32,256 bases of DNA from assembly GCA_003990765.1 (NCBI GenBank), contig RBNJ01000360.1, positions 1 to 32,256 of the forward strand. Reading direction: 5' to 3'. Each line of letters starts with the position of its first letter. Positions within the stretch are counted from its first letter, which is position 1. The notes under the pieces are model-generated. The model had not been told where the DNA came from and did no database searches. It was given only the letters and a program-made list of their open reading frames with translations. Source of the DNA: Jimgerdemannia flammicorona. Lineage: Eukaryota. Shown here piece after piece: positions 1,120-26,340 of the stretch. The translations under genes were made by a program, and so were the position numbers.

Positions 1120-2710
<1,591 letters not shown>

Positions 2711-4413: not shown

Positions 4414-4518
4414 CGCGTCATCTGAAGCCTCCACCATCCCAACAAAAAAAACCCCCAAGCACACCATACCCATACCCATATACCCATATTCATACCTACT
4501 CCATCCCTTCTCTCAATC

Positions 4519-7120: not shown

Positions 7121-7460
7121 AGGCAACTGTCGGTGCAAGGCTTCGAAGCTGGTCCAATGATGATGCCTGAAGGCAACCGTCTGAACAGGGTTCAGAAGCT
7201 GGTCGAAGGGTATTGGCCAGATAGTTTGTTACTAAATACGTTTGTGGTGTCGATTTCTTGTGTTTTATGGAAGGGGTGGTTTTGGGCTTTTTTTTTTCCA
7301 TCCCATGAGGCAACCATCAGAGCAAGGCTCTGAAGCTGGTCCAATGATGATGCCTGAAGGCAACCGTCCGAACAGGGTTCGGAAGCTGGCCCAAATGGTG
7401 TTGACTGGATTGCTTTTTACCACATACACTTATAGATTATTTATTTTTGTCCTTTGTGTT
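7121..7460. repeat. 187-bp direct repeat (2 copies), each with two 50-bp sub-units containing a 7-bp hairpin
   Basis: AGGCAAC...GAAGCTGG units start at 7121, 7171, 7308 and 7358. GAAGCTGGTCCAATGATGATGCCTGAAGGCAACCGTC is identical in both copies. Confidence 0.85.
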
Positions 7461-7816: not shown

Positions 7817-8292
7817 TATAACATAGTGGACACTTACTCTTGAAAGAATGTCAGATTTCTGTATCTTGAAAACTTGACTGTTCTGACTCTTGCAGAGTCT
7901 CTTGAAGTTGCAGGGGAGGGTGGGTGAGTTCGAAGTATATCTGCCCACAGACTTACTAGTTCCTTTGCTATCTCTTTGCCTTGAACTATTTCAATCTGAG
8001 GTTTATTCACTTGAAGATACTGGGTTATTTATACAAGTTTGCTAGCTATGAGAGGGTGGCTAAGTAATAAATGAGTCATTTGGACTTTGTTGAAATATTT
8101 GGACTATGTCTAAATACTATACTAAATCAGGACATTTGATTTGGATAATGTCTAAAATTTAGACAATGTCTAAGAATTTAGACAATGTTGGAATTGAGGA
8201 CTGCTAACTATAAGGCTATACTACTTTGGGACTAGGTGTGATCAAGTGTCTATTCCCTATTTTCTTCTTCCAAATTTGGCTGTACCATCACA
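7817..8292 (-). repeat. 3' LTR of element 1
   Basis: Ungapped match to 15276-15751 with 27 substitutions by manual count. Confidence 0.96.
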
Positions 8293-8329
8293 ACTTCCTT
8301 CTGAATAGATGGTCTCATCCCTGAGACAT

Positions 8330-8791
8330 CTATTCAAACTCCCAGGCTTCAACCATCTGTATGGTCTTGTACTGTACAATTTGCTGCATGACTGTTTCCC
8401 AATAATGTCTTCTCACTTTCTCAAAGTCGGTAGGGGTTTCTCCTCTCAGGTGGTCTATTGCTGGTTCATCTTCTCAGAATAACTTGTAGATTCTTTTGGC
8501 AATAGTGATCTGTGAGTGGGAGAGTTGACACTCAGCAATCTAGTCCTCTTTGGTCTTTGCTGGATCCTGATTGAGCACCTGTCCAAGCTTGAAGTACTCT
8601 TGGAATTCTGCCTGATATTGATAGGCTCTAAAGTGCGAGATCTGAGAGAGATGAGTTTGCACAATACTCTGAATATCATCATAGTATGCTCCTATGGTTG
8701 GAGGCTCAGTGGTGTGCCATTGTCTTTCAATGGCTCTTTGGGCAGCGCTAGTGATCTTGAGTGCCATCGCAGTACTTTTATTACTAGCCAT
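8330..8791 (-). pseudogene. Element 1 accessory ORF3 (~153 aa, unknown function) between integrase and the 3' LTR
   Basis: The ATG overlaps the pol stop. One frame with two internal stops (TAG 8540, TGA 8474), each one transition from a sense codon. Confidence 0.7.
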
Positions 8792-10000
8792 GATATTTCT
8801 TGAGTCAGTTTCGGTGAATGGTGGTGGGGATTATTGTGTCTGAGGGTTTTCATAGCCAAAAGGTGGTTCCTTTTATATCTTGTACAAGGTAAGATCCTTC
8901 CCACTTGGGCTCTAGTTTTTGTGACCATGAAGCTTCTACCATATTCCAATACACTAGGACTTTGTCTCCTATCTTGATAATCTCCAAGAGTTTGTGGGTC
9001 TTTTCCACATTCCTCCATTATAGTGTCTGTACCTTGGTTATGTAATCCTCAGCCTTCTTCCTGATTTGGTATAGTCTCTGTATTTCCATATCCACATGTT
9101 TCCATATAGAATCTCCATTGGATGATAGGGTTCCCTGAGAACATTCTTCTCTGAACAGCATTTCTCGAGGGGTAAAGTGGGTACTTTGTGATCAGATATC
9201 CCGGAGAGCAGATAATGCTATTGGCAGATAGTGATCCCAGTTCTCATAGTTATCACAGATCTTGGCAATAACATTCTTGAGGGTTTTGTTGGTCCTTTCT
9301 ACTTATCTGTTTCCTTAGGAGTGATAGGCTGTGGTCCAAATGTGCTGGATCTTGTACTTCTTGTAGAGAATCTCAAAGAGCTGGTTCATGAATTCTGTTC
9401 CTCTATCTGTAGTTACTTGTATTGGGGTCTTGAACCAGCAGATGATTTCCTTGTGGAAGAAATCAGTGATTGACTATACATTGGCTTCCTTGAGAGGTCC
9501 TGCTTCTATCCACTTTGTAAAAAGGTCTATAATGATAATGATATATCAGTTACCAGTCAGGGTCAAGGATAGGGGGCCAATTACATCTATTGCTATGTGG
9601 GCAAATGGTACTGGTTCTATGCGTGCTGATCCTGGGACTTGGTTTCATTGGTCTTGTTTCTGTTTCTGGCATTTGTCACAGGTCTTGACAAATTGTCTGA
9701 TATCTTCCTCCATCCCTGGCCACCATATTGTTCTTCTTGCCTTGTCATATATATTCGTTCCTCCTAGATGGCTAAGTTCATATACTGATTTCATTACTTG
9801 CTCCTTCTTGTGTTCTGGTATAACTAGTAGTTTTCCTTTCTTCAGTGTTTCTCCATCAGTTTTGAATTGTTTCCATGTTCTGTTGATAATCGTTTGTATC
9901 CATTCTTCCAGATGTTGGGGTATCTTTTGCTGTCCCAGGTATGTGATGATTCCATAGTAGAGCTCCTTATTCATGATTGATTTATTGGTTGGGGGTAGTT
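8784..10000 (-). pseudogene. pol: Element 1 integrase (HHCC, DDE core, GPY-like module; no chromodomain)
   Basis: SHLGG...WWPGM...CDKCQ; IAIDVIGPL; TTDRGTEF; VERTNKTLK; KLEPKWEGSY. Confidence 0.93.
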
Positions 10001-10059
10001 CGGGGTGTCTGTGAGAGGGCATCTGCATTGGCATTGGTTCTTCCAGAGTGGTGTACAAT

Positions 10060-11322
10060 GGTTACATCATAAGCTTGCAACTTCATTATCTATCTGGCAT
10101 AGATTCCTTTATGTTGTCCAGTTGTCAGTAGCCAGGTGAGAGCTGAGTGGTCTATTTGGATGATGAAGTGTCTCCCAGCCAGATAGTAGTAGAACTTTTC
10201 TACAGCCCAGATGACTGCGAGGCATTCCAACTTGTAGGATTTATATTTTTTTTCAGCTTCTCGAGTTCTGCAGCTAAGGTATGTGATGACATACTCCACT
10301 TTATCTTTCTTTTGAGCTAGGACTGCTCCTAGTCCTTGTGCACTTGCATCAGTCTATAGGATGAATTCTTGAGTCTAGTCAGGTCTTCTGAGGATGGGTG
10401 CCTGGGTCAGTCTGACCTTGAGTTCATCAAATACTTTTTGTTGTCTGCCAGTCCACTGGAACTTGGTATCCTTCTTGTTAAGTTCATAGATTGGACCTGT
10501 GATATTAGAGAATCCTCTAATAAATCTGCGATAGTAGGAGGCAAGTCCCATGAAGGCTTGGGCTTCTGTAACAGTGGTGGGTCTTGGGTATGCTGCCACT
10601 GCTTGTATCTTGAGGGGGTCCATGTGTGTTCCATCTTGGTTGATGATGTGGCCAAGATAAGAGATCTCGATTTCTGTGAATTTGCATTTCTTGGACTTGA
10701 TGTATAGGCCATACTCTCTCAGTCTTTCTATTATCTGCCGGATGTGCTGCAGGTGTTCTTCTGGTGTCTGGCTGTAGATGATTACATCATCAACGTAGAC
10801 CATCATCTATCTTCCTATATTATAGCAGAAGATTTTGTTCATCATTCACTGGAAACTTGCTGGTGCATTGCATATTCCAAATGGCATTCATAGGTAGACA
10901 TAGGTTCTGTCTGGGATGATGAAAGCTGACTTTTCACTTGCCATGTCTGTGAGTCCAATTTGGTGGAATCCTGAGTATAAGTCCAAAGTGCTATAGTACT
11001 GTGCTTCATCTTCCAGTGTTATGAGGATGTCATTGATGAGAGGCAGTGGTTGGCAATCCTTCTTGGTAACCATGTTGAGCTTTCTGTAGTCAATGCAGAG
11101 TCTTGGGGTGAATTCTCCAGACTTGCTGTCTTTTTTTGGGGCTAGTACAACAGGTGAGGACCAGGGGCTGCTGGCTTCTTTAATGATACCAGCTTCTTCT
11201 ATCTGCTTGATTTCTTCTCTGAGTCATTCTTGGTAGGCTGGTGGGACAGGTCTTGCCTTCTGATAAATTGGTTTGGTGTCTCCAGTATCTACTTCATGAT
11301 AGTAGTGTGGGGTCTTTCCTTT
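10060..11322 (-). pseudogene. pol: Element 1 reverse transcriptase and RNase H
   Basis: SPWSSPVV, LCIDYRKLN, LDLYSGFHQI, MPFG, YVDDVIIYS, FMGLASYYRRFI, TDASAQGLGAVL, LECLAVIWAV, DHSAL. Confidence 0.96.
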
Positions 11323-12508
11323 TTTTTTTTTTTTTTTTGTTTTACGGACTCATGTCCCAAGGATTTTTATTGGAAGGGAACCTAGACTATATAGGCCAAA
11401 ACCCTCCCCCACCACCCACCAAGCACTGCCCCTCCATTAACCTAGGCTAGCTATTGTCCAGCAGCTCGACCATGCCAGGCGCAGTAGGGCTGATAAGCCC
11501 GCACCTCATTCTGTGTACCATGCTCTCCCTACCACCAGGGGAAACCCAACCATATGCTAACAACCAAAAGCACATGCCTGAGAACCCAACGTATGTACAA
11601 GGCCACGCCCGAGCTGAATAAAATAGCCCCTGCCACCCCAAAGAGAATGACAGGCAAATAAAAAACTCTCATCAAAGCACAACATGGTGGGTAGGGCCTG
11701 GTTCTCCCAGTTGAGGTGAGTAAAGGACTTACACATAAGGCAGGAGGAAACCCCCAATACCCCACTACTCAAGCCTGTGGGCCTCAATCACATTGCCATG
11801 TCAGCTCCCAGTTCCAGTTGAGTGCAGCCAAGACACCTGAAATGGGTAGCCTTGGGCCTCCTGACCCCCTCTGATGACTGGGGCCCAACCCTGCTGACCA
11901 CCAAAAGAAGCCAATAGTGACACCTACCACCTAACTGCACCACACCAATCAAAAGGCCCCACCAAAGCAGCACCTGCCCCAGCCCCGATGACTGCCCCCA
12001 GCCTGGCACCCTACTGGTTCACCGTAATCGCCCTTCCACCTATCTGTGATGGCCATCTCCCCTCCCATCCCGACAACACCCAAAAAGCTGTCACCTATGC
12101 CAGAACCATGCTCGCCGGGAAGCTTGCCAAAGCCAGAGGGCCCCACCACAGGCACCAAGGACCTGCAGGTAACCTATACTGAGCACTTGACGCCCAAGGT
12201 CGGCCGACTCCCTACATAGCCCGAGACACACCAAGACAACTCCTTGTTAGCGATGGCAAAAGGAAGAAGGCGCCGCACCAAAAAGGGTACACCCTAGACG
12301 CAGCTGAAGGCACCAGAATCCATGAAAAAGTGGAGGAAGCACTAATCCGACACTGATAAAGGGACAACTCATCACCATTGCCCTCCTCCCACCATGCCCC
12401 TGCAGGCACAGCAAACCAACCTGAGGTAGAGGGGGTAATATTAGGGGAAAGGGGACTTGGAAGGTCGCCTACCAAACCTAGTGACCGGTAAGGTAGTGGA
12501 GAAAGGAG
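11323..12508 (-). mobile_element. Poly(A)-tailed non-LTR retro-insertion (5'-truncated LINE 3' end or non-autonomous element)
   Basis: 14-16 bp TSD GTGGGGTCTTTCCT(TT) at 11307-11322 and 12509-12524. T tract to 11338. AATAAA on the minus strand at 11366-11371. Removal restores pol KDIKGKTP|HYYHEVDTG. Confidence 0.92.
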
Positions 12509-12689
12509 GTGGGGTCTTTCCTTTGATATCCTTGAAATCTGTGGCAAGGACATCTTCAAATTCGTGGAGTATTTTCTTGAGTTCTTTCTTAAGTGGAAAT
12601 TCATTTCTGATGGTGTAGCTGTGCTTGCTTGTGTTTTCCTCCTTCTTATACTCGAGTTCGGTAATCTTGGTGCTGGCGAATACTTCTCT

Positions 12690-13102
12690 TCCTGTGGATC
12701 CAAATCCTTTCTTTCCTCTTTTCGTTTCCTCCAGATTCTTGACTTCTATGATCCTTGGTTGTATGATTGGAAAGATCAACATTTGCACCAATCGGTCCTT
12801 CTTCTTGACTGGAAATGGGATTGTAGGATTGTGATTTCTAGCAATGAGTAGGATTTCTCCAATATAGTCTGAATCGATGACTCCTCCTTCAATTGTGATT
12901 TCACTTCTAGCCAGGCTGCTTCTTGTCTTGAGAATCCCGACATGATCCTTTGGGATGGTCATCTCCAGTCTAGTTGTGAGTAGGGTGGTTGTCTGGAGTT
13001 CCAGTACAGTCTCTTCTACTTTAGCAATGTCCATTCCAGCTGCGTTTTCTGACTTGTATTCTGGCAAGACTGCATCAGGGAGGATCTTTCAAATCTTGAC
13101 CT
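12690..13102 (-). pseudogene. dut: Trimeric dUTPase domain within element 1 pol
   Basis: All five motifs are present: AAGMDI, RSSLA, GVIDSDYIGEI, DRLVQM, RGKKGFGSTG. Confidence 0.95.
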
Positions 13103-13399
13103 TGATTTCTTCTTCATCATCACTGTCCTCTAGGAGGGCTGGTGGTTCGTCATCTTTCTCCTTCTCTTCTTCCCTGATCTATTTTTCAAGAGCTTTCTGC
13201 CTTCTTTCCTGATAGATCTTCTTGGTTCCGATGGTGCACTGGTAGCAATCATTGACATGCTCTATACAGTACATCTTGATTCCATGAGGACAGACTCCTT
13301 GTAGGGTATAACCTTCTGTGATCTTCTTACACCATTCTTCTTCACTCATCCATCCAACTTTCTTCTTCTTTGGAGTAGTCACCATATAAGCTTCCTCTT

Positions 13400-13810
13400 G
13401 CTCACTCTCTTCTTCCTCCATATCAGGCAGGACTCCTTTGTTGATATTGATGGAAATTCGTATCTTCTGTCCCTGATAGGTGATCTGCATCTTCTGAGCA
13501 TTGAGATCAATTACTGCCTTGGCTTTGTGAAGCCATTGATTGCTGATGAGGATGTCATTGTTGGTGGCATTGGTTACAATTACATCTACTGGGATTGTTG
13601 CTCCTTCAATCTTGATGGGAATATCTCGGATCTTTCCTAGAGATGTGGCTCTTGTGCCATTGGCTGTGACAAACACCAGCTTAGTTGCTTCTTCCACATC
13701 CCAACCTAGGCAGTCCACTGCCTTCTTGCTGAGGAGACATCCTTCTGCTTCTGTATCAATGATGGCTTCAAAGATTCTATCTTCAATTTGGCATGTTGTA
13801 TAAGCAGAGG
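13400..13810 (-). pseudogene. pol: Element 1 retropepsin protease
   Basis: AIIDTEAE (DTGA after G>A), ANG, and DILISNQWL (ILG.xWL motif). Confidence 0.88.
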
Positions 13811-13919
13811 TTTTGCAATTGTCCTCACATTCTTCTTCTGAGTCCTCTTGGACATTATTGGCCTCAGTTATCTTCCATCCTTGTTTCTTAGTTGTTTCAG
13901 CAAGTCCAAACCTCATTTG

Positions 13920-15220
13920 CTGTCTGAATGTTGGGATTTCTGCAAGCTGACCAAAGGTTGCATTGACCTTTTGTTGACTGAGGTCCTTGAAGATATCATA
14001 CTTGAAGGTCTTGGTCTTGCGAAGCTTCTTTTCTTTTTCTCCTTCACTGGCTGAAGTGGTTCCTTAGATGATATCTTGAACTGCTTGCTCTAGCTCTGTA
14101 TCTTGGTCCATCTCTTTGGCTTGGCTTTCTGTGGCAGTTTCCATCCACTTTTCCACTGAGTTCTTCTTAGGTCTTCCTGGTGATTTCTTGTAGGATTCTT
14201 TGCAAACATCCTTCTTAGTAGTCTGAGCAGGATAGGCCTCCTATACCTCTTCTTCAGATTCACCAATTTCTTCAAAGGTGATTGTATTGACCTGTTCCTT
14301 GTTTTATGAAGCATTGCTTGGTTGAGCCTTATGCTTGGTTTCACTCATGCATTCATAGGAGTAGTGGCCTTCTTCTCCGCAGCTGTACCAGATACCTTTC
14401 TTCTTGTCTGAAGTGATGGCAAACTTCTGAACAGGGCAGCAGTCTCTTCCTCGAATTTCCTTTACCACATCTCCCAGGTGGGCAGTCATTTTAGCAAACC
14501 TTTTGGCGAGTTCCTCCATAGGGTCACTGTTCTTTTGCTGCTCTGTAGCTTTTGGCTGAGGTGTGTTTCGATTGATCATTGTGGTAGGGATCACACTAGT
14601 TGCCTTGGGTGCCTCGATTCTGACTCCTGTGACCCTTTCCATTGTATGGTCTTGTGGATGTCTAGCTATCCAGTATTGCTGAGCATAGGTGACCTTCTGT
14701 GGCAGATCCAGAATCACTGGTGATGAGCAGATGGCCATGGCTATTTCTGGATAGACTCCTTTCATGAAGGTTGCTTCAGCTACTTGATCTCGGATAGCAG
14801 CAGCATAATCTACAAGGATTATCTGATATCAAATTCTGGTATAGAATGTGTTTAGATCTTTGCTCATTCCTTGGCATATTGTATTGAGCTAATTCTTCAG
14901 GGCTTACTTGATCTCATCTGTATAATATGTATTTCGGAGCCAGGTCTTCTGTGCTGTCAGTATAGCATTGGCATCATTTCCTGTATGGGTTGCAACTGTG
15001 AATGCTGTTCTGGCAGGACCTCATAGGCTGAAGGGTATGAGGGCTACTTGCTGTGCTGCTGTCAGGGTCCTTACAGTGGCATGCTGCTTGAAATTGTCAA
15101 TGAAGGTGATGATTGATTCGTCTGAGGTATATCCATGGAATACTGGTGGTCTCATATCTATCTTGTCTGGGTATTGGGGCTCGGTTTGTATGGTTGTTCG
15201 GGTAGTGGTGGTTATTCATT
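13920..15220 (-). pseudogene. gag: Element 1 gag
   Basis: RPPVFHG capsid start, FMKGV, and a decayed zinc knuckle WYSCGEEGHYSYEC. Confidence 0.8.
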
Positions 15221-15263
15221 GTTCAGCTTGAAAGTGAGGGATTCATCTTGAATCACCAGCCAA

Positions 15264-15272
15264 TGGGCACCA
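15264..15272 (-). promoter_or_regulatory. Primer-binding site of element 1
   Basis: TGGTGCCCA lies 3 nt inside the 5' LTR. It may be decayed TGGCGCCCA (tRNA-Lys-like), but the tRNA identity is uncertain. Confidence 0.7.
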
Positions 15273-15275
15273 AGT

Positions 15276-15751
15276 TGTAACATAGTGGATGCTTACTCTT
15301 GAAAGTATGTCAGATTTCTGTATCTTGAAAACTTGACTGTTCTGACTCTTACAGAGTCTCTTGAAGTTGCAGGGGAGGGTGGGTGAGTTCGAAGTATATC
15401 TACCTACAGGCTTACTAGTTCCTTTGTTATCTCTTTGCCTTGAACTATTTCGATCTGAGGTTTATTTACTCGAAGATACTGAGTTATTTATATAAGTTTG
15501 CTAGCTATGAGAGGGTGGCTAAGTAATAAATGAGTCATTTGGACTTTGTCAAAATATTTGGACCATGTCTAAATGCTATACTAAATCAGGACATTTAATT
15601 TGAATAATGTCTAAAATTTAGACAATATCTAAGAATTTCGACAATGTTGGAATTGAGGACTGCTAACTATAAGGCTATACTACTTTGGGACTGGGTGTGA
15701 TCAAGTGTCTATTCCCTATTTCCTTCTTCCAAATTTGGCTGTATTGTCACA
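15276..15751 (-). repeat. 5' LTR of element 1
   Basis: TGTAACA...TGTCACA termini, an internal TATA-like motif, and an adjacent PBS. Confidence 0.96.
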
Positions 15752-16240
15752 ATAGATATTCTACAGAAAAACCTCTAATATAGGATAATTATTATATAAT
15801 AAAAAATTATAGTAAATCTTGTTCAATAGAATAATATTAGATCAGTCATATATTTTTTAATAAGAGAAATCTATACAAAAGATAACATATTATAGCTATA
15901 TAATAGAATTATACTTTCAAATACATTTCTATAGTCTTCTATTAATCTAATAATCTGACGGTCTCTGAGACAGATTATAATTTTAATACTCATTTATACT
16001 TTATATTGCCCAATCTATATTGAGTATAATTAGATAAAGATTTTATATAATATATTATTAAATAGATAATATCTATTTTTAATTCTCAAAATAAATTTAT
16101 TATTATATATATATATTTTCTTTTTACTTATCTTATATATTTTTACTTATTTAATATATAAAATAACTAATAAGAATGATTTAATCTTTTTTAACATTCA
16201 TACTATATATACTTTTCAATATACTTCTAAATAGTTTTTT

Positions 16241-17087
16241 GGAGAAAGGTAATAGCAATATAGTGATTAACAAGTAATCTGACAAGTATGCTAAATCAGA
16301 TAGACTTGGGACCTTTGACTAGCAATATATTGAATAAGAATATAGTATAGAGATGGGGTCTTTTGGTAGTAAGAGTAGATAGAAAGAGTAAAGTAAGAGT
16401 CAGCTGCTAGATAGGAGTGGAGGAGAGCAGGGACTGATGAGTTTTGCTATAAAGATAAAGACAGAGAGTTGACCTGGAGATACTTAGGACAGTAGAGCTG
16501 AAGAGAGGAAGATGGTGAGTACTGGGAGAGCTGGTAGATTATTGGCTAGTAGGGCTAGTATAGAGACTAGTAGGGCTGTGGCTTGAAGCAGGGGTAGGAC
16601 TACTAATAGTGATATAACTAGAGATCTGAAAAAAAAATCTATATGTAACTACTGATAGCAGGGCTAAACAGAAGAGATATAGAGAGAAGAGAGATCTGGT
16701 AGATAGTATAATAGGTCTAGTAGTGACTTCATTACTCAAGAAGTTGATCTTAGAGTTTATAGTTATGTTGTACTTTCAGAAGCTAGTAGTGATAGCTAAG
16801 ATAGTTCTGAGACTAATCTCAAAGCAGATAGAACAGCTTTAGTAAAGTTCTTGTAGGGGCTGAAGGAGATTAAGATGAGCTTTGAGAAGGCAGGGCTATT
16901 AGAGGAGATCTTGAAGACTGAGTTGACAATTGGAGAGATAGTGGTACTGATAGTATAATACTTAAGATAGGACCCTAGAGTGGTTTAGCTCCTAGTGAAA
17001 GAGATACTCATGATAATAATAGTTAAGACAAAGCAGAGGATAGAGGAAGTAATAATAGAATATAGTAATATAGTAGATATTGGATTC
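16241..17087 (+). mobile_element. Probable 5' part (UTR/ORF1) of a degenerate L1-like LINE
   Basis: Same G/A-rich strand bias as 24838-26340. The frame from 16860 reads ...DPRVV*LLVKEIL...RIEEVIIEYSNIVDIGF, resembling a LINE ORF1 RRM. Confidence 0.5.
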
Positions 17088-17424
17088 TATACATTCTCCT
17101 AAGTCTTAGTAATGACATCTAAGTAACTCCAAAAGTCTAGCTAACTTCTGCCAGAACTGACTCTGATATATAAATCAAAAAGACTTAAGTAAACCCACTT
17201 ATTGAACCTGAATTCCAAGGTGGATTTAGTCTGTGTACAGCAGAGAATAAGTTCCTTATAACTATAGTTAATAAAAAGGATACTAGTACTATAACTACTT
17301 TCAAGTGAGTGCTTTCTCACACTGAAGACTTCTTGGTACACATTGTGTACTAAGTCTCTAAGTAATACCTTGTTTTCCTAATTATTTAAAGGATAAGAGA
17401 GGGATAGAAATAAGAGTTATTATA
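17088..17424 (+). repeat. Element 2 partial 5' LTR (R/U5 side), followed by an 8-nt PBS T[G>A]GTAGCA at 17428-17435
   Basis: Reverse complement of 20396-20752; the spurious ORFs 17141-17341(-) and 20479-20679(+) are near-identical. Confidence 0.9.
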
Positions 17425-18084
17425 ACTTAGTAGCAACAGAATTACCAAGCCAAGAAGGTATCAAGAATATACTTCTGAGAAGTTAAAACAAGACCAATCT
17501 GAACAGGAGTAACCCCCAGAACTAACTGTAGATTCTCTAGAAACCAATCTCCAAACCAGAGTCAGATAAGCTATTGTCATTAAGACTAGATAGTATTAGA
17601 AAACTACTGATCCAGAAATCCACCAGCTAGTAATTGACCAGATATACAGAGATCTATATGAGGTCTTTAGGACTTTCCACTCAGATCTTAGAAATATAGT
17701 TAGCTGCTGTAGATTCTACATACTTCTTCATAACTACCTTGGAATCACTAGGATCTAAGAATCTACTGCTGCAACTATCTAGGAATTTCTAGACTATATC
17801 TTATTCTCTGTAGCAAGAGAAGCAGCTGCTGAGTGAATTGCATCTAATAAATACCACTATACTCCTACCAGGACCTCTCTCTAATATAGACTAGTTGTTT
17901 ACTATACCTCAGTTATAATAAGATATAAGAACAAGTAAGCTGGCCACTCATCCCCTACTGCTGATCAAGAAGCAGGCCCATCTATCTAGCCAGAATCTAA
18001 TATCCCTTTTGAAGGACCTAGTCAATATGAGAATACACTATCTCATCAGAGAAGGGAGTCAGATAAAGACTCTACAGGATACTA

Positions 18085-20374
18085 GTGCTCAAGGATATAT
18101 TGAACCCAGCCATTTCCCATTTAGAGCTCCTATTCTGTTTGTCAAGAAGAAGGATGGCTCTCTGTAAATATATATTGACTATAAAGCTCTCAACAAGATC
18201 ACTATTTAGAACCAGTATGCCTTATTTAGGATTGATGAGTTGTTATACCAGATCTTCAAGGCTAAGACCTTTTCTCTACTAAACTGCAAAATGGTTATTA
18301 CCAGATTCTCATTGATGAGAAGGATATTGAGAAGACAGCTTTCTGAATACAGTTTGGATACTACTAGTTTTGAGTCATGCCTTTTGGTTTGACTAATATA
18401 CCAGTGATATTCTAGTATCTGATGAATGATATCTTTGAACCACTGCTCAAAATTTGTATTCTTGTGTATATTAATAATATACTAATATATAGTAAAACAG
18501 TAGAGCTACACTATATCTATCTCAGGCAGATACTGACCTTTCTGTGAGAATATCAGCTCTATGCCAAGATGAGTAAGTATAAGATCAGATTGAGTAACTA
18601 AGATATATCATCTCTGCTGAAGGTATCAATGTAGATCTCCAAAAGGTATCAGCTCTTAAGGATATTCCTATCCCCACTACCCTCAAGCTACTCTAGTACT
18701 TTCTGGATATTACAGATTACTACCAAAGATTTATCTAAGAATACTTTACTATTACAGCCCCCCTGATCAGCCTGATCTATAAAGGAGTGAAAATCAAAAC
18801 CAAATAGACTCTTGAGTATACTCAGACCATGGACTACCTCAAAAAACTCCTTACTGAGGCTCCAGTGCTAATTACATCTGATTCTACCAGAATATTCACT
18901 TTGATCACAGCTGCCTCTGATATTGCTATTGGGGTAGTACTCAGTCAAAAAGATCATTTAGTGGCCTATCTTTTCCAAAAGCTCAAGCTAGCTGAGATCT
19001 AATATACTATCCATGAGAAGGAACTTCTGACCATTGTCACTGTACTCTAGGAATAGTGCTATTTTCTCTTAGGACAACTATTTATAGCCTATATTGATTA
19101 TCATACTCTATAGTATATTCAAATACAGCTTATGCTAACTCACAAATAAGCCTATTGGATGGAAATTATTACTAACTTTGATATGGTTATCAAGTATATC
19201 TCAGACAAAATCAACTGTATAGCTGATGGTTTCTCTAGATATATAGAAGATGAACTTATCTTCATGGTTGAGATAATTGGAGACCTTACTCAGATAATCA
19301 AGAATGACTACTAATAAGACAGCCCCCTGGTAAAATTCCTTCAATTCTGCTAAGACCCAGAGGTTGAGATCCCAGAATCTATGAGGCAAATGTCCAAAAT
19401 ATTCACTTACCATGATAGACCTATCTATAGAGATTATGACAGAGTGATTGTACCCAATAATAATACTCTGCAGCTCAAGGTCATATAGGAACTCTATGAC
19501 ACTTCTGTAGTAGAACATTTTGACTTTAAAATGACTTACAATCTCCTCTCAAGAGAGTTCTACTGGCCAAAGATGACTAAGGATATCAAAGATTTCGTAA
19601 CTTTATATAAGATGTACCAAAGATTCAAAAGTGATAACTAGCTATCAGCAGGACTTCTGCAACTCCTGCCTATCTCTAGCTATAACTGGGATCAGATTTC
19701 TATAGACTTCATTGTCTAGCTCCCCAAGACCAAGGCAGGATGGGATGCTGTTGTAGTATTTGTAGATTATCTAAGCAAATAAGCCTATTTTGCACCCACT
19801 AAGACCACTGCTACAGTACCAGAGATTGCTGAGATTTTCCTCAACTAAGTATTCAGACTATATGATATATCTAGTATCATTGTATCTGATCAGGATGCCA
19901 AGTTTATAAGCAACTTCTGAAAGGCATTCTTCTCTCTCTATAGAATCAAGCTGAAGCTCTTTACTGTCTACCACTCTCAGAATGATGACCAGATCAAACA
20001 AACCAATAGAACTCTCAAGCAGATGCTCAGCATCTTCTGCTGTTATAAGCAGAATGATTGGGACAAATATCTAGCCCATACTGAGTTTGCCTATAATAAT
20101 AGCTAGCAAACCTCTATAAAGAAGACTTTATTCTTCCTGAACTATGGTCAATATCCAAGGACCCCAAGTACTACTATAAAATCAGCAGTCTCAGTAGCCC
20201 AAGATCTGGCCAAGACTATTTCTGATCTTATTCAAATGATAAGAGATATTCTTATTAAAGCACAGAACTATCAGACCAAGTATGCAAACTTGAAGCAAAG
20301 AGAAACCTCTTACAATATTGGTGATATAGTCATTCTTAGAACAGACTATCACTATCCAAACACTCTGGTATAGT
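18085..20374 (+). pseudogene. pol: Element 2 pol (RT, RNase H, integrase to just before the GPY module); most of gag and PR deleted upstream
   Basis: APILFVKKKDGSL..IDYKALNK; MPFGLTN; YINNILIYS (YIDD after G>A, 18467); HEKELL; FYWPKM; WDQISIDFIV; VSDQDAKF. Many transition stops. Confidence 0.93.
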
Positions 20375-20392
20375 AACTATCCACTGCTACTA
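20375..20392 (+). other. 18-nt copy of a tRNA-iMet-like 3' end abutting the inverted LTR
   Basis: AACTATCCACTGCTACTA versus the human tRNA-iMet 3' end AACCATCCTCTGCTACCA (recalled from memory): 15/18 match, with two mismatches of CpA>TpA type. Confidence 0.7.
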
Positions 20393-20395
20393 AAT

Positions 20396-21163
20396 TGTAA
20401 TAACTCTTATTTCTATTTCTCTCTTATTCTTTAGATAATTAAAGAAATAAGATATTATCTAGAGACTTAGTATACAATGTGTACCAAGAAGTCTTTAGTA
20501 TGAAGAAGTGCTCACTTAAAAGTAGTTATAGTGACAGTACCCTTCTTATCAACTATAGTTGTAAGAAACTTGTTCTTTGCTGTACACAGACTGAATTTGA
20601 ATTAAAATTTATATTCAATAAGTGGAATTACTTAAGTCTTTTTGATTTATATACTAGTCTCAGTTCTGATAGAAGTTAGCTAAGCTTCTGGAGTTTAGTC
20701 AGAAATACTAGAGTCACTTAGATATCATTACTAAGACTCAGAGGAATGTATGTATATAGAGGATGACTTAATTTTTATATTAAGGACTGAACTAAAACTA
20801 TCTTTATTTCAGATAGAAACTGGGGGGTATTTTATATAAGTTGGTTCATAATTTCTAACTAAATATAAGTGACTAATTTGGTAACTATGGTAAGATTTAT
20901 GATCATGACCTTTATTAGATAATTTGTAATTAAGAATACTTTGTAATCAGGATCTCTATTATTAGGCAATGATCAGCTACTGCAGTACTGATTGTTGTAG
21001 AACCAATTATTGGAAATAAGCTAGATATTATTTATTTATATTATTTATATCATTTATTAGATTTGTCATTCATATATTATATATTACTAATAGTGATATA
21101 ATTATTAGATTATATGATTACTTATTATATATTGTATCTTGTCTATTCATTTGTTCATTCTAT
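20396..21163 (-). repeat. Element 2 near-complete 3' LTR (inverted)
   Basis: One end matches 17088-17424 (inverted) and the other matches 24671-24837 (direct). TATATAAAA on the minus strand at ~20830. A purine tract is adjacent at ~21164. Confidence 0.85.
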
Positions 21164-21168
21164 TCTCC

Positions 21169-21471
21169 TTAAAAGTCAATGTTCTTGTTGATTTGAAAAT
21201 TGAGAACTAGGGAAGAAGAGGGTAGGAAATTCTCCTCATCTAACTCAGTATTGTTGCCATCTCTATCAGAGATTGGGAGGGTAGTTGCTGATGGCTTAGT
21301 ATCAAAGATGAAAAAATCAATAAGGTCCACAAATAGTTCTTGAGCACCTAGTATGAGAGTTCTCTATCTAATATAGTTGGGCCATCCAGATAAGGGACTT
21401 GTAGATCATATCTGAGAATATTTATTTAGATAGACAGTCCTTCAAAGAGATGAGAAAGACCTTGAAGCCAT
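21169..21471 (-). pseudogene. Element 2 accessory ORF C (~100 aa)
   Basis: The ATG overlaps the ORF B stop (TAATG). Three internal transition-type stops. Ends at the purine tract. Confidence 0.45.
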
Positions 21472-22043
21472 TAGTCTGAATTATTATTCAGAAGGGGGCT
21501 CCAGTAGGGCTCGCAGTCAGTGGACTTGAGTGTGATCCAGAAGTGGGCTTCTTGAGTGACCTTGATCTTTAGTTCATTAACCTTGGAGAAGAAGAGGTTC
21601 TGGAAGTCCTTCAGTTATATATAGTTGAGATTGGAGATTACAAAAGATATATAGTATATAATTTGATAGACCTTCTTAGTTATTCTATACTCATGCTTGT
21701 TCAAGTTGGTCTAGTCTGAGACCTGGTCCATAGGTAGGCCTTTTATATATTGAAAAGGTTGATGGCCAATTTTATATTCATATCAGATTTCTAGGTAGCT
21801 GGTAGTAAGGTAGGCTCTTTTGATAACTTCATAGTAGTTGAGGACATAATGTCCTAAATCTTAGCTAGTGAGATTAAGAGTCTCAGAGCAGTAGTTTCTT
21901 TCTTGAATAGTAATCTGGATATATCCAAAGAGGTAGTCAACCTGAATTGAAAGGGGCTGACTATGGTGGGCTGTTTGGCAGTAGATAGTAAGTATTCTTT
22001 TCTTATCTTTTCTTTAGTAAGAGAAGAGGGGGATGGAGGTCAT
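21471..22043 (-). pseudogene. Element 2 accessory ORF B (~190 aa), apparent homolog of element 1 ORF3
   Basis: A single frame of 191 codons with five transition-type internal stops. Motif similarity to ORF3 (RAY..E..YKIG; I.KKVYQI; I..L....KDF). Confidence 0.6.
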
Positions 22044-22297
22044 AGTGTATTTCTGACCTGGATATTTATACTTGTTTATCTATCTGGTGTAACTCTATTT
22101 TGATCACCTGACTAGAGAAATATATGACCTATTGCTATAAGCAGGGCATATACTAGTCATATAAGAAAATACTAATTTTAAAGGTATTATCACATTGTAG
22201 TTATAGTTACACAGAGTTGACAAATCTTGGACCTTTTTTCTTGGTATATTTGTAAGAACTGACTATTCTTATCTAGGGTGAGAGCTCTCATTATCAT
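22040..22297 (-). pseudogene. Element 2 accessory ORF A (~85 aa)
   Basis: ATGA overlaps at both ends, in frame with each other. Contains CQLC and a hydrophobic stretch. Many internal stops. Confidence 0.35.
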
Positions 22298-22961
22298 GGC
22301 TGGGGGTTCAAACCTCTCAAAAATAGTATTTCTTATAATCTGAGATAATTTCTAGAAATAATATCTATTATGTGGATAGACTTAAGATTGGTTCTAATAT
22401 TGTTGGCTTTCTTGAGTTCTATATGAAACATCTGTCACTCTCTAATATAGATGATACAGATGGTATGAATAGAGTTATTCAAATGTATTTTGCTATACCT
22501 TGCTAAGTTATTCTTTATCTGAATATCCTCTTGTTGATTAATTATAGTGTTTCTTTTCTTGTAATATTCAGTATTATATATCCCAGATAAATATATGGTA
22601 TCCTTTTCATTTGCTATATACTCTAGATTTTAGAGCTATAGTTTCTTCCTTTGCTAGGGAGTAAGTATTTCCATATAGTCCTAAAGAACTTTATAGACAT
22701 TCTCCAGTACTTCTTCTTTTTTCCAGGTAGCATCATAGGTAGAGTAACCTTTCTACTTGATAAGGAAAAACCACTTGACTGTTTTGGTATATTTGTGGAT
22801 CTTGTGGTCAAGTACTTTCTTGATTTCAAATTCCTCATAATCATTAATCCCAATTAGAAGTAGTGATGGAACTATATGCTTGGAGAATAAGTTCACATAG
22901 TAGTCCACCAGTTGACTGATATGGAATACTGAGTATACTTGAATATTATAGGGAAGTTGTA

Positions 22962-24242
22962 TAGTGACTTCCAAAACCAGTCCAATGTTTTATTATTTTT
23001 TACTTTTTATTATTTTAAAAATAGAAAAAAAAAAATTGAAAAAATATAAAACTAAAGTATATTGTAGTCCTATATTAGAAGTTTCCATAGATCATAATTT
23101 TGTCATATTTGGTATTATTTTTGCTATTGAAAATAATTTTTAAAAAAGTCCACACATTGGATCAGTTTTGGAATAACCTCCTCAAAAAATACTAAATATA
23201 TACTGATTAATACTTTACATAGCCTCCCTTTGTCTTATACATCATGCCAACATACTTTGATATACCATCAATTAAATCCTTATATACTTGGCTGGGAATT
23301 ACATTCCATTCTTCTTCTATATATTTCCAAAGCTCATATATGCCCTTCAGCAGTTTCTTATATAGATTGAGCTGTCTTTTGAGATGTACCCACAGGTGCT
23401 CAATTGGGCTTAGGTCCAGAGACTGTGCTGGCCAGTCTAAAAGTCAAACATAGTTATTCTTGAACTATTTCATCACCATATACAATGTATGCTTTAAGTT
23501 ATTGTCCTATTGAAATATTAGTTATTTTCAATTGATCTTGAAATACTTAATCAATTTCTTTAATTCATTATTAAGAATACTTTAGTAAAGCTTGGCATTT
23601 ATTTTTCCTTTGATCTTGTATATATACCCAGTGCCGCAGTAATTTATATAGCCCTAAACCATAATATAACTACCCCTAAACTTTAAAATTAGTATTACAT
23701 AATTTACTGTCAATAGTTTGCCTTGGTATTTCCATACTCATTGTCAACTGTCAGATCCAAAACAGTTGATTTTGGTCTCATCAAAGAATATAACCTGCTT
23801 CTAATTGTCAACTGTCTACTCTTTATACTTGCATATGAATTCATATCAAGCTTTTATATACCAGCAGAAGAGTAGGAGTTTCTTTTATTTTACAGTAGCC
23901 TTCAAACTGGCTTCCTTCAGGGTACAACATACTGTTTGGGTACTGGCTTTTACTTGGCCATCTTCTTGGAGTAGTTTTGTAATCTTGGGGGCTATATTGG
24001 TATTACCACTAGTTACCTGGCAAATAATCCATGATTTGTCACAATCTGAGAGTATTTTTGGATGACTTTCTTTCAATGACATAATAGAGCAATGCTCCTT
24101 TTTAATATGGATTATAGTTGTCTTGCTAACACCAGTCTGTTTGGCAATTTGACATATCATTATATCTGAGTTTAGCAGAACAATGATATTTTTTTGAGTA
24201 TCCAATGAAATTTTTCTCATTTATTTTTTTAAAAAAAAAAAA

Positions 24243-24278
<36 letters not shown>

Positions 24279-24581
24279 AGCATGTGGAGAGGGGTTAAGA
24301 GAATAATCATGCAAAATTTCTAGCTTATATAGTGATTTTTTGATGGTCTGTAACACAAAAATATATTTATTGAGATAGTCGTTCTAAAACTGGTCCAATG
24401 TGCAGACTTTTTTAAAAATTATTTTCAATAGCAAAAACAATACCAAATATAACAAAATTATTATCTATAGAAACTTCTGATATAGGGCTACAATATACTT
24501 TAGTTTCATATTTTTTCTCTATTTTTAAAATAATAAAAAGTAAAAAATAATGAAACATTGGACCAGTTTTGGAAGTCACTG
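22962..24581 (-). mobile_element. Tc1-family (DD34E) DNA transposon, 1620 bp, ~220-bp TIRs, TA TSD
   Basis: TA|[C>T]AGTGACTTCCAAAAC ... GTTTTGGAAGTCACTG|TA. TIRs at 22962-23185 and 24370-24581. Excision restores integrase YKLQLP. Confidence 0.96.
23207..24220 (-). pseudogene. Tc1 transposase (338 codons, in frame, many transition stops)
   Basis: HTH (QIAKQTGVSKTTI), VIFFDETKIN, FQ*DNNLKH, WPAQSLDLSPIEHLW, KGGYVKY*. Confidence 0.95.
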
Positions 24582-24670
24582 TAGCTTATAGTTAACTTTG
24601 CTGACCTTTTCCACAATCTTGTATAGTCTAATTCTTCTAGTATAGAGTTTCTTAGATGTTTGCTATAGTA

Positions 24671-24837
24671 CTAATTACTGGAGATAAGCTGGATATTATT
24701 TATTCACATTATTTATATCATTTATTATATTTGTTATTTATATATAATATGTTGCCAATAGTGATATTATTGCCAGGTCATATGATCACTTGTTATATAT
24801 CATGTCTTGTCTGTTCATTTGTTCATTATATTACAAT
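24671..24837 (-). repeat. Element 2 LTR U3-end fragment
   Basis: Direct match to ~21003-21163. Ends in ATTACA (TGTAAT on the minus strand). Confidence 0.85.
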
Positions 24838-26340
24838 CTAACAGTTAGCTTATAAGAAATATAAAGAGAAGATAGAGACTAAGGATGATGAGACAATCCT
24901 TGAGATTTTGGCTGATCTGAAGGAGAGAGAGGCTGAGAAAGAGGAGGCTGTAGTTGAGTATGATCTAGACTTAGCTCAAGAGGAGATGAGTGTAGAACTG
25001 TAAGGAGTTAGAACTATTCTATAATATTATTTTCTTATAAACAATATAACTAATATTTTCTTACTAAATGTGAATAGCTTGAGAAGCTCTATGAGACATC
25101 AAACCATTTTTACTTAGTTGAGAGGATTGGGTACAGATCTTTTTCTATTATAGAATATATGCTATAAGAAGGACTTAGATAGATAGGAGTAGGCAAAGAA
25201 ATGAGATAGAGTAGTAGTTTAGTGAGATAAGGTGGAGTTTCTGATATGAAAGAGTAAAGGAGATCTTTGTGAGATTAGTGGTTGAGGAGAGTACTTAGTT
25301 TGGAAGAAGTGATAGAGACCGGAGTGGAAACCAGTAGTTATCAGCTCTTATTACTGCTCTATAGTTAGAGGAGATAGAGTAGAGTAGTTGAATAGACTTT
25401 ATAAGTGTAGTATACTTGCTGAGGTTGGTATGGATATATTTGGTGGAGATTTTAACATAGTGTAGAATGTACTATTATATAAGACTAATAGAGAGAAAAG
25501 TACTAGAGATCAGAGTAGTGGTCTGAATGTCTGAGAGAAGGTAGAGTATCTAAGTTCTTTAGTAAATACTGGCAGAATATTATGAGAGAACTAGAGGGTT
25601 TACACTCACTGAGTAAATGAACTTGAAATAAGAATTGACTGGATATTGACTACTAACTACTGGGGAATAGATGTCTGGATAGATCTTGAGATAGAGTGGT
25701 GCTCTTGATTGGATCATTAGGGGTTAAGAAAGCATGAGTAGTTTGGGGGGAGTAGAGATGAACCTGGACTTTGGTGTCTCAAAACCTCTTTATTGATAGA
25801 GAAGAGATTATGGGAGACTTGAGCAGTGGCCATTGAATCAAAGATTATCAGCTGGAATCATAAGGAGTCCCTTGTGGGGGTCTGCTGAATGATGTTGAAG
25901 GAGACTGCTAGAGTATATTAAAGTGAGGCTAAAAGTTTCTGAGAAGTATAATGATGATATAGAGTATAGTGGGCTTTTTATTAATTGGAGAGATTATAGC
26001 TAAAATGGGTCAGTTTATTGAGCTGAGAGACTGTAGAAGACTGAAAGCTAGAGTGAGCCCAGATGGAGGTAGGGAGTTGAAGTGATTATTGAGAGAGAAG
26101 GAGGAGACTTATGTGTAGAAAATGACTACTAGGTTGAGGTGGCAGAGGCTTGAGGAGGGTGAGAGGCCTTCTATGTATTTGTTGAGGCTTCTTCAGGTAT
26201 GAAGAGTACAGTAGAGGTGGGATGGAGTGCTTGATAAGAAGGGCACCCTGGTGCATAGAATGCAGCAGATCTTGGGCTCTCTGAAGAGAAGATGGAGAGG
26301 TCTGTGCCCTACAGAACTTAGGAAAGCTGGTGTGTTTTCC
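24838..26340 (+). mobile_element. L1-like LINE: acidic ORF1 tail and ORF2 AP-endonuclease domain, truncated before RT
   Basis: One frame contains LNVNSLR (25064), DLFLL*, GGDFN (25442-25456), RIDWI (25631) and LDH (SDH after CpG decay, 25709), followed by WPLNQRL. Confidence 0.85.

Follow-up and report, generated by a model that had tools for sequence, protein, structure and literature searches.

We found that a Ty3/Gypsy element in the window, by which we mean the whole 32,256-nucleotide stretch of Jimgerdemannia flammicorona DNA analysed here, carries a genuine and conserved coding gene, ORF3, that is under purifying selection, and that a second frame, ORF B, is very probably a degraded, RIP-ruined homologue of the ORF3 family and its third member, judging from profile comparisons. 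The explanation that we favour, and regard as probable, is that ORF3 represents a lightly RIP-damaged but real accessory gene of a dUTPase-bearing, chromodomain-less lineage, and ORF B a third and far more divergent member, ruined by RIP, behind a chromovirus-type copy. Both frames, which had been pointed out in an earlier note on this DNA, are present on the minus strand, ORF3 at 8330..8791 and ORF B at 21471..22043, with two and five internal stops, respectively, and a terminal stop each.

The element with ORF3, here called element 1, is a dUTPase-bearing Ty3/Gypsy element without a chromodomain, as had been claimed and as the domain search agreed. Its 5' LTR (15278..15752) and 3' LTR (7819..8293), both 475 bp in length and on the minus strand, are 94.5% identical. 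The dUTPase domain (12690..13070, minus strand; 6.3e-25 and 1.9e-26) is located between the protease (RVP_2) and the reverse transcriptase (RVT_1), and the integrase (8777..9821, minus strand), in which stops are present, consists of an H2C2 zinc finger, an rve core and a C-terminal part (Pfam: Integrase_H2C2, 1.3e-15; rve, 5.9e-10). The Pfam search revealed no Chromo match in element 1 and likewise none in L001, a related metagenome element with the dUTPase at the same place. L001 has the order gag-PR-dUTPase-RT-RH-IN, followed by an intact 153-aa ORF3 that overlaps the integrase end. The window copy of ORF3, an accessory gene of 153 codons, was indeed found between the integrase and the 3' LTR, beginning with an ATG that overlaps the stop codon of the integrase and ending 36 nt from the LTR. 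This 36-nt spacer (8294..8329, minus strand) contains a purine run resembling a polypurine tract, which is conserved in L001 according to the alignment, read directly.

Comparison of ORF3 with its counterpart in L001 gave a pN/pS of 0.24 in frame, as against values of 1.36 and 1.75 for the two remaining frames, and the value for the integrase C-terminus of the same two elements, 0.19, was near that of ORF3. The measure of selection that the earlier note had proposed for both frames thus came out well below 1, with an outcome that covers ORF3 only. Both internal stops of the window copy are of the RIP type, and at the first of them W is present in 7/7 homologues. These seven were identified among 12 database candidates (E values from 3.5e-72 to 1.3e-31, 63-78% identity), and HMMER matched ORF3 to the family profile (alignment A4) with 156.4 bits (1.7e-49). 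An exhaustive profile search found, in addition, the protein P0010 at E=1.6e-5, and with it a second clade of 11 proteins of about 165 aa, 21-27% identical; in a joint alignment, clades 1 and 2 have the motifs EFQ..Y, TIA.RIY.LF and AL.H in common. Because this second clade exists, ORF3 belongs to a protein family, which comprises at least two intact clades in public data, mostly environmental. The family is unnamed, as had been supposed, with no match in searches of Pfam, PDB, folds and motifs.

The ORF3 family is predicted to be helical, with a long helix spanning about 40 residues, in agreement with the earlier note; the model of clade 2 (pLDDT 76, pTM 0.72) is all helical, with residues 143-165 disordered. 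Clade 2 proteins have a net charge of -10 to -14, mostly from the last 30 residues, and the tail ends in a Trp-acidic motif, which reads EAWEFE in clade 1 and, in clade 2, DEWDL, DEWDV, EEWDL or DEFDI. No transmembrane segment was found in the eight homologues examined, the maximum 19-residue Kyte-Doolittle mean being 0.19-0.89. An envelope identity was rejected for proteins that are only 153-168 aa long, lack a hydrophobic segment and have an all-helical soluble model; the view that the frames are not env-like therefore stood as regards size and membrane segments.

The surroundings of ORF B had been described as one chromodomain element ("element 2"), a description that gave way to that of a rearranged, RIP-mutated mosaic (15753-26000) rather than one intact element. 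On its plus strand, the LTR-like repeat R1 (copy 1, 17088..17435) and a PBS-like word precede a RIP-mutated Gypsy pol fragment (17600..20384) containing RT, RNase H and integrase up to the start of the SH3 part (RVT_1, 1e-13; RT_RNaseH_2, 3.6e-17; Integrase_H2C2, 1.9e-11); gag and protease were not detected in the mosaic. An inverted copy of R1 (20385..20752, minus strand), 83% identical to copy 1 and 98% when transitions are ignored, is likewise followed by a PBS-like word and abuts the broken integrase, and it is from this one repeat pair and the short PBS-like word that R1 is taken as an LTR with a tRNA-Met primer site. The minus strand carries a RIP-mutated integrase end with a probable chromodomain (22660..22959), for which the motif pattern and the integrase end were read in the printed frame; the Chromo match (22675-22830; E=0.0011) has 19.2 bits, under the Pfam cut-off of 25.1 bits in this RIP-mutated DNA, with a typical integrase end directly before it. 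A Tc1/mariner-type DNA transposon (22960..24583, minus strand) with terminal inverted repeats of about 232 bp (22960-23191 versus 24583-24364, 85.8%) was inserted in the integrase C-terminal region, its DDE_3 (3.4e-4) and HTH_7 (0.0055) matches both being under cut-off. Upstream of this insertion is an integrase SH3-like piece (24584..24671, minus strand; SH3_Tf2-1, E=0.0013, under cut-off), which appears to complement the break in the plus-strand integrase. In addition, an AT-rich repeat, R2 (20975..21183), located between ORF B and R1, is a direct copy of 24643-24851.

The mosaic has the pattern of RIP, namely C-to-T and G-to-A transitions, mainly at CpA, and low GC. Transitions accounted for 51/58 of the differences between the R1 copies, 18/21 of those between the Tc1 repeats and 24/26 of those between the element 1 LTRs, with an A after the mutated C in 22/50, 12/18 and 16/24 cases, respectively. 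The GC content of the mosaic was 0.29-0.34 and its TpA/ApT 0.95-1.16; the second RIP index, (CpA+TpG)/(ApC+GpT), was 1.06-1.33, which is not below the usual RIP threshold.

ORF B shares its strand with the chromodomain, from which it lies about 0.6-0.7 kb downstream, and the LTR-like repeat follows it at a distance of about 0.7 kb. Its placement between an integrase and a 3' LTR accordingly survived in strand and order, but with about 0.7 kb on either side and an uncertain LTR assignment. The host elements of ORF3 and ORF B do differ in lineage, as had been claimed, their RNase H being only 34% identical (35/103 residues). ORF B likely belongs to the chromovirus, a membership that is unproven because element 2 is a rearranged mosaic; lying behind the chromodomain of a chromovirus-type copy, it would therefore place the family in more than one Gypsy lineage. 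Alternatively, ORF B may be a true relative of ORF3 but stem from an element unrelated to the chromovirus; together with the LTR-like repeat, it would then be a fragment from the 3' end of that element, brought to its place behind the chromovirus piece by nested insertion and rearrangement. The chromovirus may end at the chromodomain stop, because a purine run, like the polypurine tract before an LTR, follows immediately after that stop. Furthermore, between the stop and ORF B lies about 0.7 kb that is unaccounted for, whereas in element 1 and L001 the gene start is at the integrase stop and not 0.7 kb off, and the region is visibly rearranged, with the inverted R1 copies, the R2 duplication and the Tc1 insertion. 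However, ORF B follows the chromodomain in the expected order and on the same strand; the R1 copy downstream of it pairs with the one preceding the plus-strand pol fragment, and the broken integrase of that fragment appears to be complemented by the chromodomain piece, two observations that argue for one element family. Neither an element-1-like integrase tail upstream of ORF B (z about 0 in all three frames) nor a second LTR pair (searched in purine/pyrimidine space) was found, and we consider an origin from a separate fragment unlikely.

That ORF B is a member of the family, on which the favoured explanation and the separate origin agree, was judged on a custom full-length test, ordinary tools giving weak results. 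In this test, the family profile was moved, ungapped and in full length, along the whole window with its 63,728 codon positions, with normalisation for composition. ORF B reached z=6.84 without a RIP model and 7.0 with one, whereas the maximum at 61,913 other positions, normally distributed with an sd of 0.95, was 4.19 and 3.89, respectively. Over the ORF B core (21528..21920, minus strand), 131 codons align without gaps to profile columns 13-143; for this fixed alignment, z was 7.0-7.3, which was reached by 0/20,000 column permutations at any RIP rate or background. Against individual family sequences, ORF B has only 12-18% identity, with z values of 3.4-6.9 for each of the 18, and the clade 2 database proteins match it as well as ORF3 does. 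The method was controlled on three other RIP-mutated domains of the mosaic, integrase, RT and RNase H, for which z was 21-46 when the frame was correct and about 0 when it was not.

The ordinary tools leave room for the reading that only ORF3 is real and that the likeness of ORF B is a matter of chance or composition in AT-rich, RIP-mutated DNA. Direct BLASTP of ORF3 versus ORF B gave E=0.25, so that the pair alone is not significant, and ORF B, although the top non-self HMMER match in the six frames of the window, had 2.5 bits (i-E 0.038). With the joint family profile, hhalign aligned ORF B over 96 columns at E=0.0025, but its score of 25.7 was matched by an unrelated Tc1 tile (26.4 over 25 columns) among 204 tiles, and with clade 1 only it gave E=0.2 in a different register. 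The profile comparison that the earlier note had proposed thus recovered a collinear alignment, with a score tied by an unrelated tile. The local-alignment score vanished when the codon composition of ORF B itself was used as background (161/500 shuffles reached it), the clade 1 profile alone gave no local signal, and the clade 2 profile alone gave z values of only 3.6-4.4. Several RIP rates and three profiles were tried before the rate-independent test was chosen, and the column range was picked from the ORF B alignment itself; both method and range were therefore chosen after the data had been seen.

Against a chance likeness stand the slide and permutation results, none of the 61,913 other positions exceeding 4.19. 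In addition, the reversed profile, in which helix periodicity is kept, gave only a baseline score on ORF B (19.1 versus 38.1), and unrelated coding DNA mutated in silico gave equally high raw scores (mean 36) but composition-corrected z values of at most 4.2 in 250 trials. Clade 2 proteins, which were absent from the by-eye comparison of the earlier note, score like ORF3, and the match lies on the pol strand just behind the integrase end. The register of that by-eye comparison was reproduced, hhalign with the family profile and the ungapped profile alignment both giving the same collinear pairing. The homology claimed between ORF3 and ORF B is thus borne out by the full-length slide and the permutations and weak by BLASTP, HMMER and hhalign; we regard a chance or compositional likeness as improbable.

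That ORF3 is no separate gene but a C-terminal Pol extension, made by a +1 frameshift in the overlap at the integrase end, is in keeping with its +1 frame relative to the integrase in both the window copy and L001, with the 44-nt overlap in L001, where the frame is open from 39 nt ahead of the ATG, and with the unusual conservation of the first 30 or so codons as DNA (up to 29/30 bases identical), but is very unlikely given that all seven full-start homologues begin at the same Met, that both DNA copies have A at -3 and G at +4, that the window overlap is only 8 nt and, as weak evidence, that the fused form was found in 0/7,327 word-sharing longer-protein candidates.

As a separate accessory gene, ORF3 would be expressed from its own AUG, either by re-initiation or on an RNA that is subgenomic or spliced, and its protein may serve the element in trans, as regulator or adaptor. 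The helical core, with its long helix, would bind the LTR or some component of the element, and the disordered acidic tail with the Trp-acidic motif would bring in a host factor, in the simplest case the transcription machinery. We put this mechanism forward tentatively and, taken as a whole, as doubtful; the idea of an activator derives from tail composition only. Bolder, and in our estimation rather unlikely, is the proposal that Gypsy lineages as deeply separated as the dUTPase-type non-chromoviruses and the chromoviruses possess, by inheritance or exchange, one accessory family under purifying selection. Its product would regulate in trans, as a transactivator of the LTR or as a counter-silencing factor, which would give fungi an equivalent of the regulatory genes found in complex retroviruses.

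The usual view of Gypsy elements in fungi is that of gag-pol machines. If they do have a third gene, present in a second lineage, lacking a known fold and as tightly conserved as the tail of the integrase, such elements would carry an unassayed function of their own. ORF3 makes a defined protein of about 17 kDa available for study, and with the family profile, "hypothetical proteins" from fungal genomes and soil metagenomes can be annotated anew. As regards method, homologues that BLAST, HMMER and hhalign miss in RIP-ruined DNA can be recovered when a profile is scanned in full length and its score normalised for composition.

Complex retroviruses, such as foamy virus and deltaretrovirus, have transactivator genes between pol/env and the 3' LTR, and acidic tails studded with hydrophobic residues are typical of activation domains, including those of retroviral transactivators. 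The ORF3 family may be likened to these transactivators in position and composition only, as a small 3'-end protein with an acidic tail; no likeness in sequence or fold was found. The env-like third ORFs of Athila/Gypsy-type elements (PMC2864245) occupy the same position between integrase and 3' LTR, but the proteins of the ORF3 family have only 153-168 aa and no hydrophobic segment. An "add. ORF" of unknown function was drawn for some fungal Gypsy elements by Novikova et al. 2010 (PMC2864245), which, like element 1 and L001, have an ORF beyond gag and pol; unlike ORF3 here, it is assigned, in the text consulted, neither to a sequence family nor to a position, and its conservation is not described, although elements with ORF3 itself may be among those of that paper. 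The same paper describes PosPlaTy3-5 of Postia placenta with a dUTPase between PR and RT, the order of element 1 and L001. In Botrytis cinerea, the Boty-like elements, which are chromoviruses, contain an additional gene, brtn (Zhao et al. 2011, cited in PMC8365987), which resembles ORF3 and ORF B in being additional to the usual genes of a fungal Gypsy element and in having no known role, but is antisense, whereas ORF3 and ORF B have the orientation of pol, a distinction drawn from the published description only. In bdelloid rotifers, additional ORFs are described as common to diverse types of retroelements (PMC5408684). Although the host is an animal and not a fungus, this case is, by description, like that proposed for the ORF3 family in having one accessory ORF in unrelated LTR-retroelement lineages, which implies capture or exchange.

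Element 1, the dUTPase-bearing Ty3/Gypsy element on the minus strand, is bounded by two LTRs of 475 bp each (7819-8293 and 15278-15752, 94.5% identical), and when read through its stops it matched the Pfam domains zf-CCHC, protease, dUTPase (6.3e-25), RT (1.2e-32), RNase H and integrase (H2C2, 1.3e-15; rve, 5.9e-10), with no match to a chromodomain in the same search. Its third frame, ORF3 (8791-8330, minus), has two internal stops, yet our analyses showed that it is a genuine accessory gene. When 5.8 billion proteins were searched by word index, 12 candidates were obtained, seven of which matched ORF3 (E 3.5e-72 to 1.3e-31, identity 63-78%), one being a full-length 153-aa 'hypothetical protein'. 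At the first stop of the window's copy all seven homologues have Trp, and at the second all six that reach the site have R, K, Q or H. In addition, a metagenome scan with clade 1, comprising ORF3 and its close homologues, matched 305 patterns and confirmed one locus, L001, a 6.5-kb contig of the same lineage as element 1, in which a 1,281-codon gag-PR-dUTPase-RT-RH frame is followed by integrase and then by an intact ORF3, the ATG of which lies 44 nt inside the integrase end in the +1 frame. Both DNA copies, in the window and in L001, have A at -3 and G at +4 of the ATG, and both have a conserved purine run between the ORF3 stop and the LTR. Between these two copies ORF3 had a pN of 0.19 and a pS of 0.80, a ratio of 0.24, compared with 0.19 for the integrase C-terminus and 1.36 and 1.75 for the two other frames of ORF3; the protein is therefore under about the same constraint as the neighbouring integrase, and the selection check proposed in the earlier note, here made on two copies of ORF3, came out in favour of a functional gene.

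The first approximately 30 codons of ORF3 (window 8700-8760, L001 5825-5885) were also conserved as DNA, with up to 29 of 30 bases alike as against 15-25 of 30 in the rest; the integrase overlap explains part of this conservation, not all, and the start could contain a cis-acting RNA or DNA signal. Traces of ORF3 were found at small shares (0.05-0.14) in soil-metagenome runs and one organism. None of the listed runs matching ORF3 was an RNA run, and the contigs of these runs are short pieces of related copies, so they have no bearing on ORF3 expression. Soil-metagenome runs X1-X3 contained many short contigs with 80-99% likeness to a region (window 8250-9250) that runs from the end of the integrase to that of ORF3, and dozens of ORF3 copies are present among soil-metagenome contigs. 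The differences in X1 were A>G 33 and T>C 20, versus G>A 11 and C>T 7, the window mostly having A or T where the soil contigs have G or C, a bias consistent with light RIP in the window's copy. A further feature of element 1 is a 1.2-kb GC-rich insertion in pol between dUTPase and RT (11303-12522, minus-strand sense), which is not present in L001. It has a terminal run of about 20 A and a 14-base direct target duplication at its flanks, the signature left when LINE machinery retroposes either a processed transcript or a SINE-like element; none of the open frames in the insertion matched Pfam.

When 1.84 billion representatives were searched exhaustively by HMMER with the clade 1 profile, six proteins were returned at E <=0.001, three of them clade 1 members. 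Two others, P0009 and P0011, are internally repetitive, each with 5-6 short matched stretches, and were excluded from the alignments as spurious. The sixth, P0010 (165 aa, E=1.6e-5, aligned over residues 49-131), has 10 relatives among 38 candidates, and these 11 proteins form clade 2. The joint alignment, A4, contains 17 sequences, with 21-27% identity between the clades and the blocks EFQ..Y, TIA.RIY.LF and AL.H common to both. Clade 2 has an extra acidic tail, and the C-terminus carries a Trp-acidic word, EAWEFE in clade 1 and DEWDL, DEWDV or EEWDL in clade 2, one clade 2 sequence ending in the Phe-acidic variant DEFDI. Scans for clade 2 relatives matched 26 patterns on viral contigs and 11 on prokaryote genome contigs, and no relative was found in either. 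Among clade 2 members, P0015 is encoded on a contig of up to 7.8 kb and P0017 on one of 5.9 kb. The earlier note had recognized no named family, and we also found none: Pfam gave no match above cut-off for either clade, the best match among PDB sequences had E=0.17, and the protein atlas returned unnamed bacterial clusters only. TBK1_ULD appeared in five of 12 clade 2 members (E 0.016-0.018) and was taken as noise.

To the right of element 1, from 15753 to about 26000, lies a mosaic with a GC content of 28-36%. It contains a plus-strand pol fragment with domain matches to RT, RNase H and integrase, ending at about 20384; an inverted repeat pair, R1 (17088-17435 and 20752-20385, 83% identical, or 98% with transitions ignored); a direct repeat pair, R2 (20975-21183 and 24643-24851); and, on the minus strand, an integrase end with a chromodomain (22959-22660; Pfam Chromo E=0.0011, weaker than the cut-off), belonging to a chromovirus fragment. 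A Tc1/mariner-type transposon (22960-24583), with 232-bp terminal inverted repeats 85.8% identical, is inserted in the C-terminal region of this fragment's integrase and is itself RIP-mutated, with weak remnants of DDE_3 and HTH_7 on the minus strand. Differences between repeat copies were nearly all transitions (51/58, 18/21 and 24/26), mostly at CpA, and the pattern is therefore assigned to RIP, which has also lightly affected element 1. The segment 16001-17000, 5' of the plus-strand copy of R1, has a GC skew of +0.40 and a purine-rich plus strand, with no domain or repeat found. Outside these transposons, just left of element 1, is a 120-bp direct repeat (7121-7239 and 7308-7427, 82.5% identical). 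The window flanks, checked through single ORFs only, contained an intact 453-codon frame (4426-5787, plus; GC about 50%) for a pepsin-type aspartic protease (Pfam Asp, 3.9e-91), an ordinary host gene lying 2 kb away from the transposon cluster, and at least 10 tandem repeats of 126 bp (42 aa) at 1070-2700 (plus) with TPR_12/TPR_10 motifs (1e-35), a kind of motif seen in fungal NLR-like proteins; because stops and frame changes interrupt this array, it is probably a decaying gene. No tRNA genes were found within the window.

ORF B (22043-21471, minus), located behind the chromodomain, has five internal stops in 191 codons and was hardly visible to ordinary programs. BLASTP against ORF3 gave E=0.25 with 8/38 identities, and hmmsearch of the six window frames ranked ORF B second to ORF3, with only 2.5 bits (i-E 0.038). 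With hhalign, ORF B matched A4 in the register seen by eye in the earlier note (probability 12%, E=0.0025, 96 columns), whereas clade 1 alone gave E=0.2 over 13 columns in a different register; moreover, among 204 tiles of the RIP-mutated region a Tc1 transposase tile scored 26.4 (25 columns) against 25.7 for ORF B, so that the E-value of 0.0025 is not exceptional. The profile comparison that the earlier note named as a refuting check is thus weak for ORF B. We then scored ORF B against A4 with a custom codon-level profile aligner that permits C-to-T and G-to-A decay. At decay rates of 0.2-0.35 the local score was 36-38 bits, compared with 16-18 +/- 3 for codon shuffles (0/500 as high), at most 23-24 for 318 other tiles, 20 +/- 2.2 for column-shuffled profiles (0/2,000 as high) and 19.1 for the reversed profile. 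This local score is sensitive to the background: 161/500 shuffles reached it when the codon composition of ORF B itself was used. Unrelated coding DNA mutated in silico had raw scores of 36 +/- 9, but once corrected for composition its z was no higher than 4.2 in 250 trials (ORF B, 7.5). Scored with single clades, ORF B gave nothing with clade 1 and only z 3.6-4.4 with clade 2. A word resembling the clade 2 tail downstream of ORF B (about 21215-21250, another frame) reached only the 99th percentile of 1,008 tiles and was rejected.

The best alignment of ORF B is gap-free, pairing codons 42-172 with profile columns 13-143, and therefore allows a test independent of background and decay rate, made after nine decay rates and three profiles had been tried in local scoring. 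The fixed pairing stood 7.0-7.3 standard deviations above column re-assignments, none of 20,000 being as high, and the result was unchanged at decay rate 0. When the 131 columns, a range chosen from the ORF B alignment and so slightly favouring it, were slid ungapped over 63,728 codon positions in the six window frames, with composition normalised per position, ORF3 gave z=8.1 and ORF B (21528-21920, minus) z=6.84 without a decay model and 7.0 at decay 0.25, while 61,913 other positions behaved like a normal null (sd 0.95, maxima 4.19 and 3.89). As method controls, the RIP-mutated integrase of the mosaic gave z 21-25 when read in its correct frame and about 0 otherwise, and RT plus RNase H gave z >40. 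With plain BLOSUM62 and raw translation, each of 18 family sequences singly reached z 3.4-6.9 against ORF B; identities in the fixed pairing were 24/131 with P0010 and 20/123 with the window's ORF3. The likeness of ORF3 and ORF B noticed by eye is thus borne out, although ordinary programs were blind to it, and the sequence comparisons make it very probable that ORF B is a decayed family member, about 12-18% identical to the other members.

ORF B does not derive from the element 1 lineage: the RNase H near it shares 34% identity with its element 1 counterpart, the repeat flanking ORF B is unlike the element 1 LTR, and ORF B is further from both clades than the clades are from each other. Whether or not it belongs to the chromovirus fragment does not alter this; the claim of two lineages in the earlier note is likely. 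We consider it reasonably likely that the two are the same element, as ORF B is downstream of the chromodomain on the same strand, the minus-strand copy of R1 lies approximately 0.7 kb beyond it, the other copy is directly 5' of the plus-strand pol fragment, and an identical PBS-like word follows both copies. The plus-strand integrase stops at the start of SH3, exactly where the minus-strand R1 abuts, and the absent SH3 part, integrase end and chromodomain were found inverted at 24671-22660, so the complementary pieces look like halves of one element with its 3' part inverted. The break falls at 20384/20385 and about 24671, with the halves on opposite strands and 4 kb apart; an LTR-like repeat and PBS-like word at the break are not predicted by simple inversion. 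Against a single element, about 0.7 kb of unassigned sequence separates the chromodomain stop from ORF B, whereas in element 1 and L001 the gene begins at the integrase stop; the real polypurine tract may be a purine run that lies right behind the chromodomain stop; no gag or protease was detectable in the mosaic (z at most 4.3 in a profile scan of 15753-26500); and R2 has no explanation.

The family protein is not an envelope protein: no hydrophobic segment was found in the family proteins examined, in agreement with the earlier note. The predicted clade 1 fold was too poor for fold searching (pLDDT 48), and that of clade 2 (pLDDT 76, pTM 0.72) has helices at 6-18, 35-75, 88-101, 105-110, 116-121 and 124-135 and a disordered tail at 143-165; this model, with one long helix (35-75) in a helical core, is consistent with the helical protein proposed from the sequence. 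Searches with the clade 2 model gave best values of E=0.85 against PDB and E=0.91 against BFVD viral structures (Foldseek), and Z=3.5 against 48,161 chains (VIA-align). The ORF3-type gene occupies a constrained frame of its own at the element's 3' end, and the family tail is disordered and acidic, with conserved aromatic residues and the terminal Trp-acidic word. An acidic tail bearing bulky hydrophobic residues is a typical feature of transcription activation domains, and on that basis we favour, tentatively, an element-encoded regulator, which would be translated from its own AUG and act in trans, the helical part binding the LTR or an element protein and the tail recruiting host machinery. 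Alternatively, the protein may counter silencing, serve as a chaperone for assembly or for nucleic acids, or act as a tether in integration. A Pol-ORF3 fusion made by +1 frameshift is quite improbable; a search for longer proteins found no fused form among 7,327 candidates, which is weak evidence.

In full-text literature searches we met no account of a protein family that, like that of ORF3, is encoded on the sense strand behind integrase, an absence that is not proof. Related situations are described in the literature: Novikova et al. (PMC2864245) drew an 'add. ORF' for some fungal Gypsy elements and reported dUTPase between PR and RT in PosPlaTy3-5 of Postia placenta, an antisense gene, brtn, is present in the Boty-like elements of Botrytis (PMC8365987), and bdelloid LTR elements contain captured ORFs common to different retroelement types (PMC5408684). 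The ORF3 family thus belongs with the extra ORFs of LTR retrotransposons, which are already known as such.
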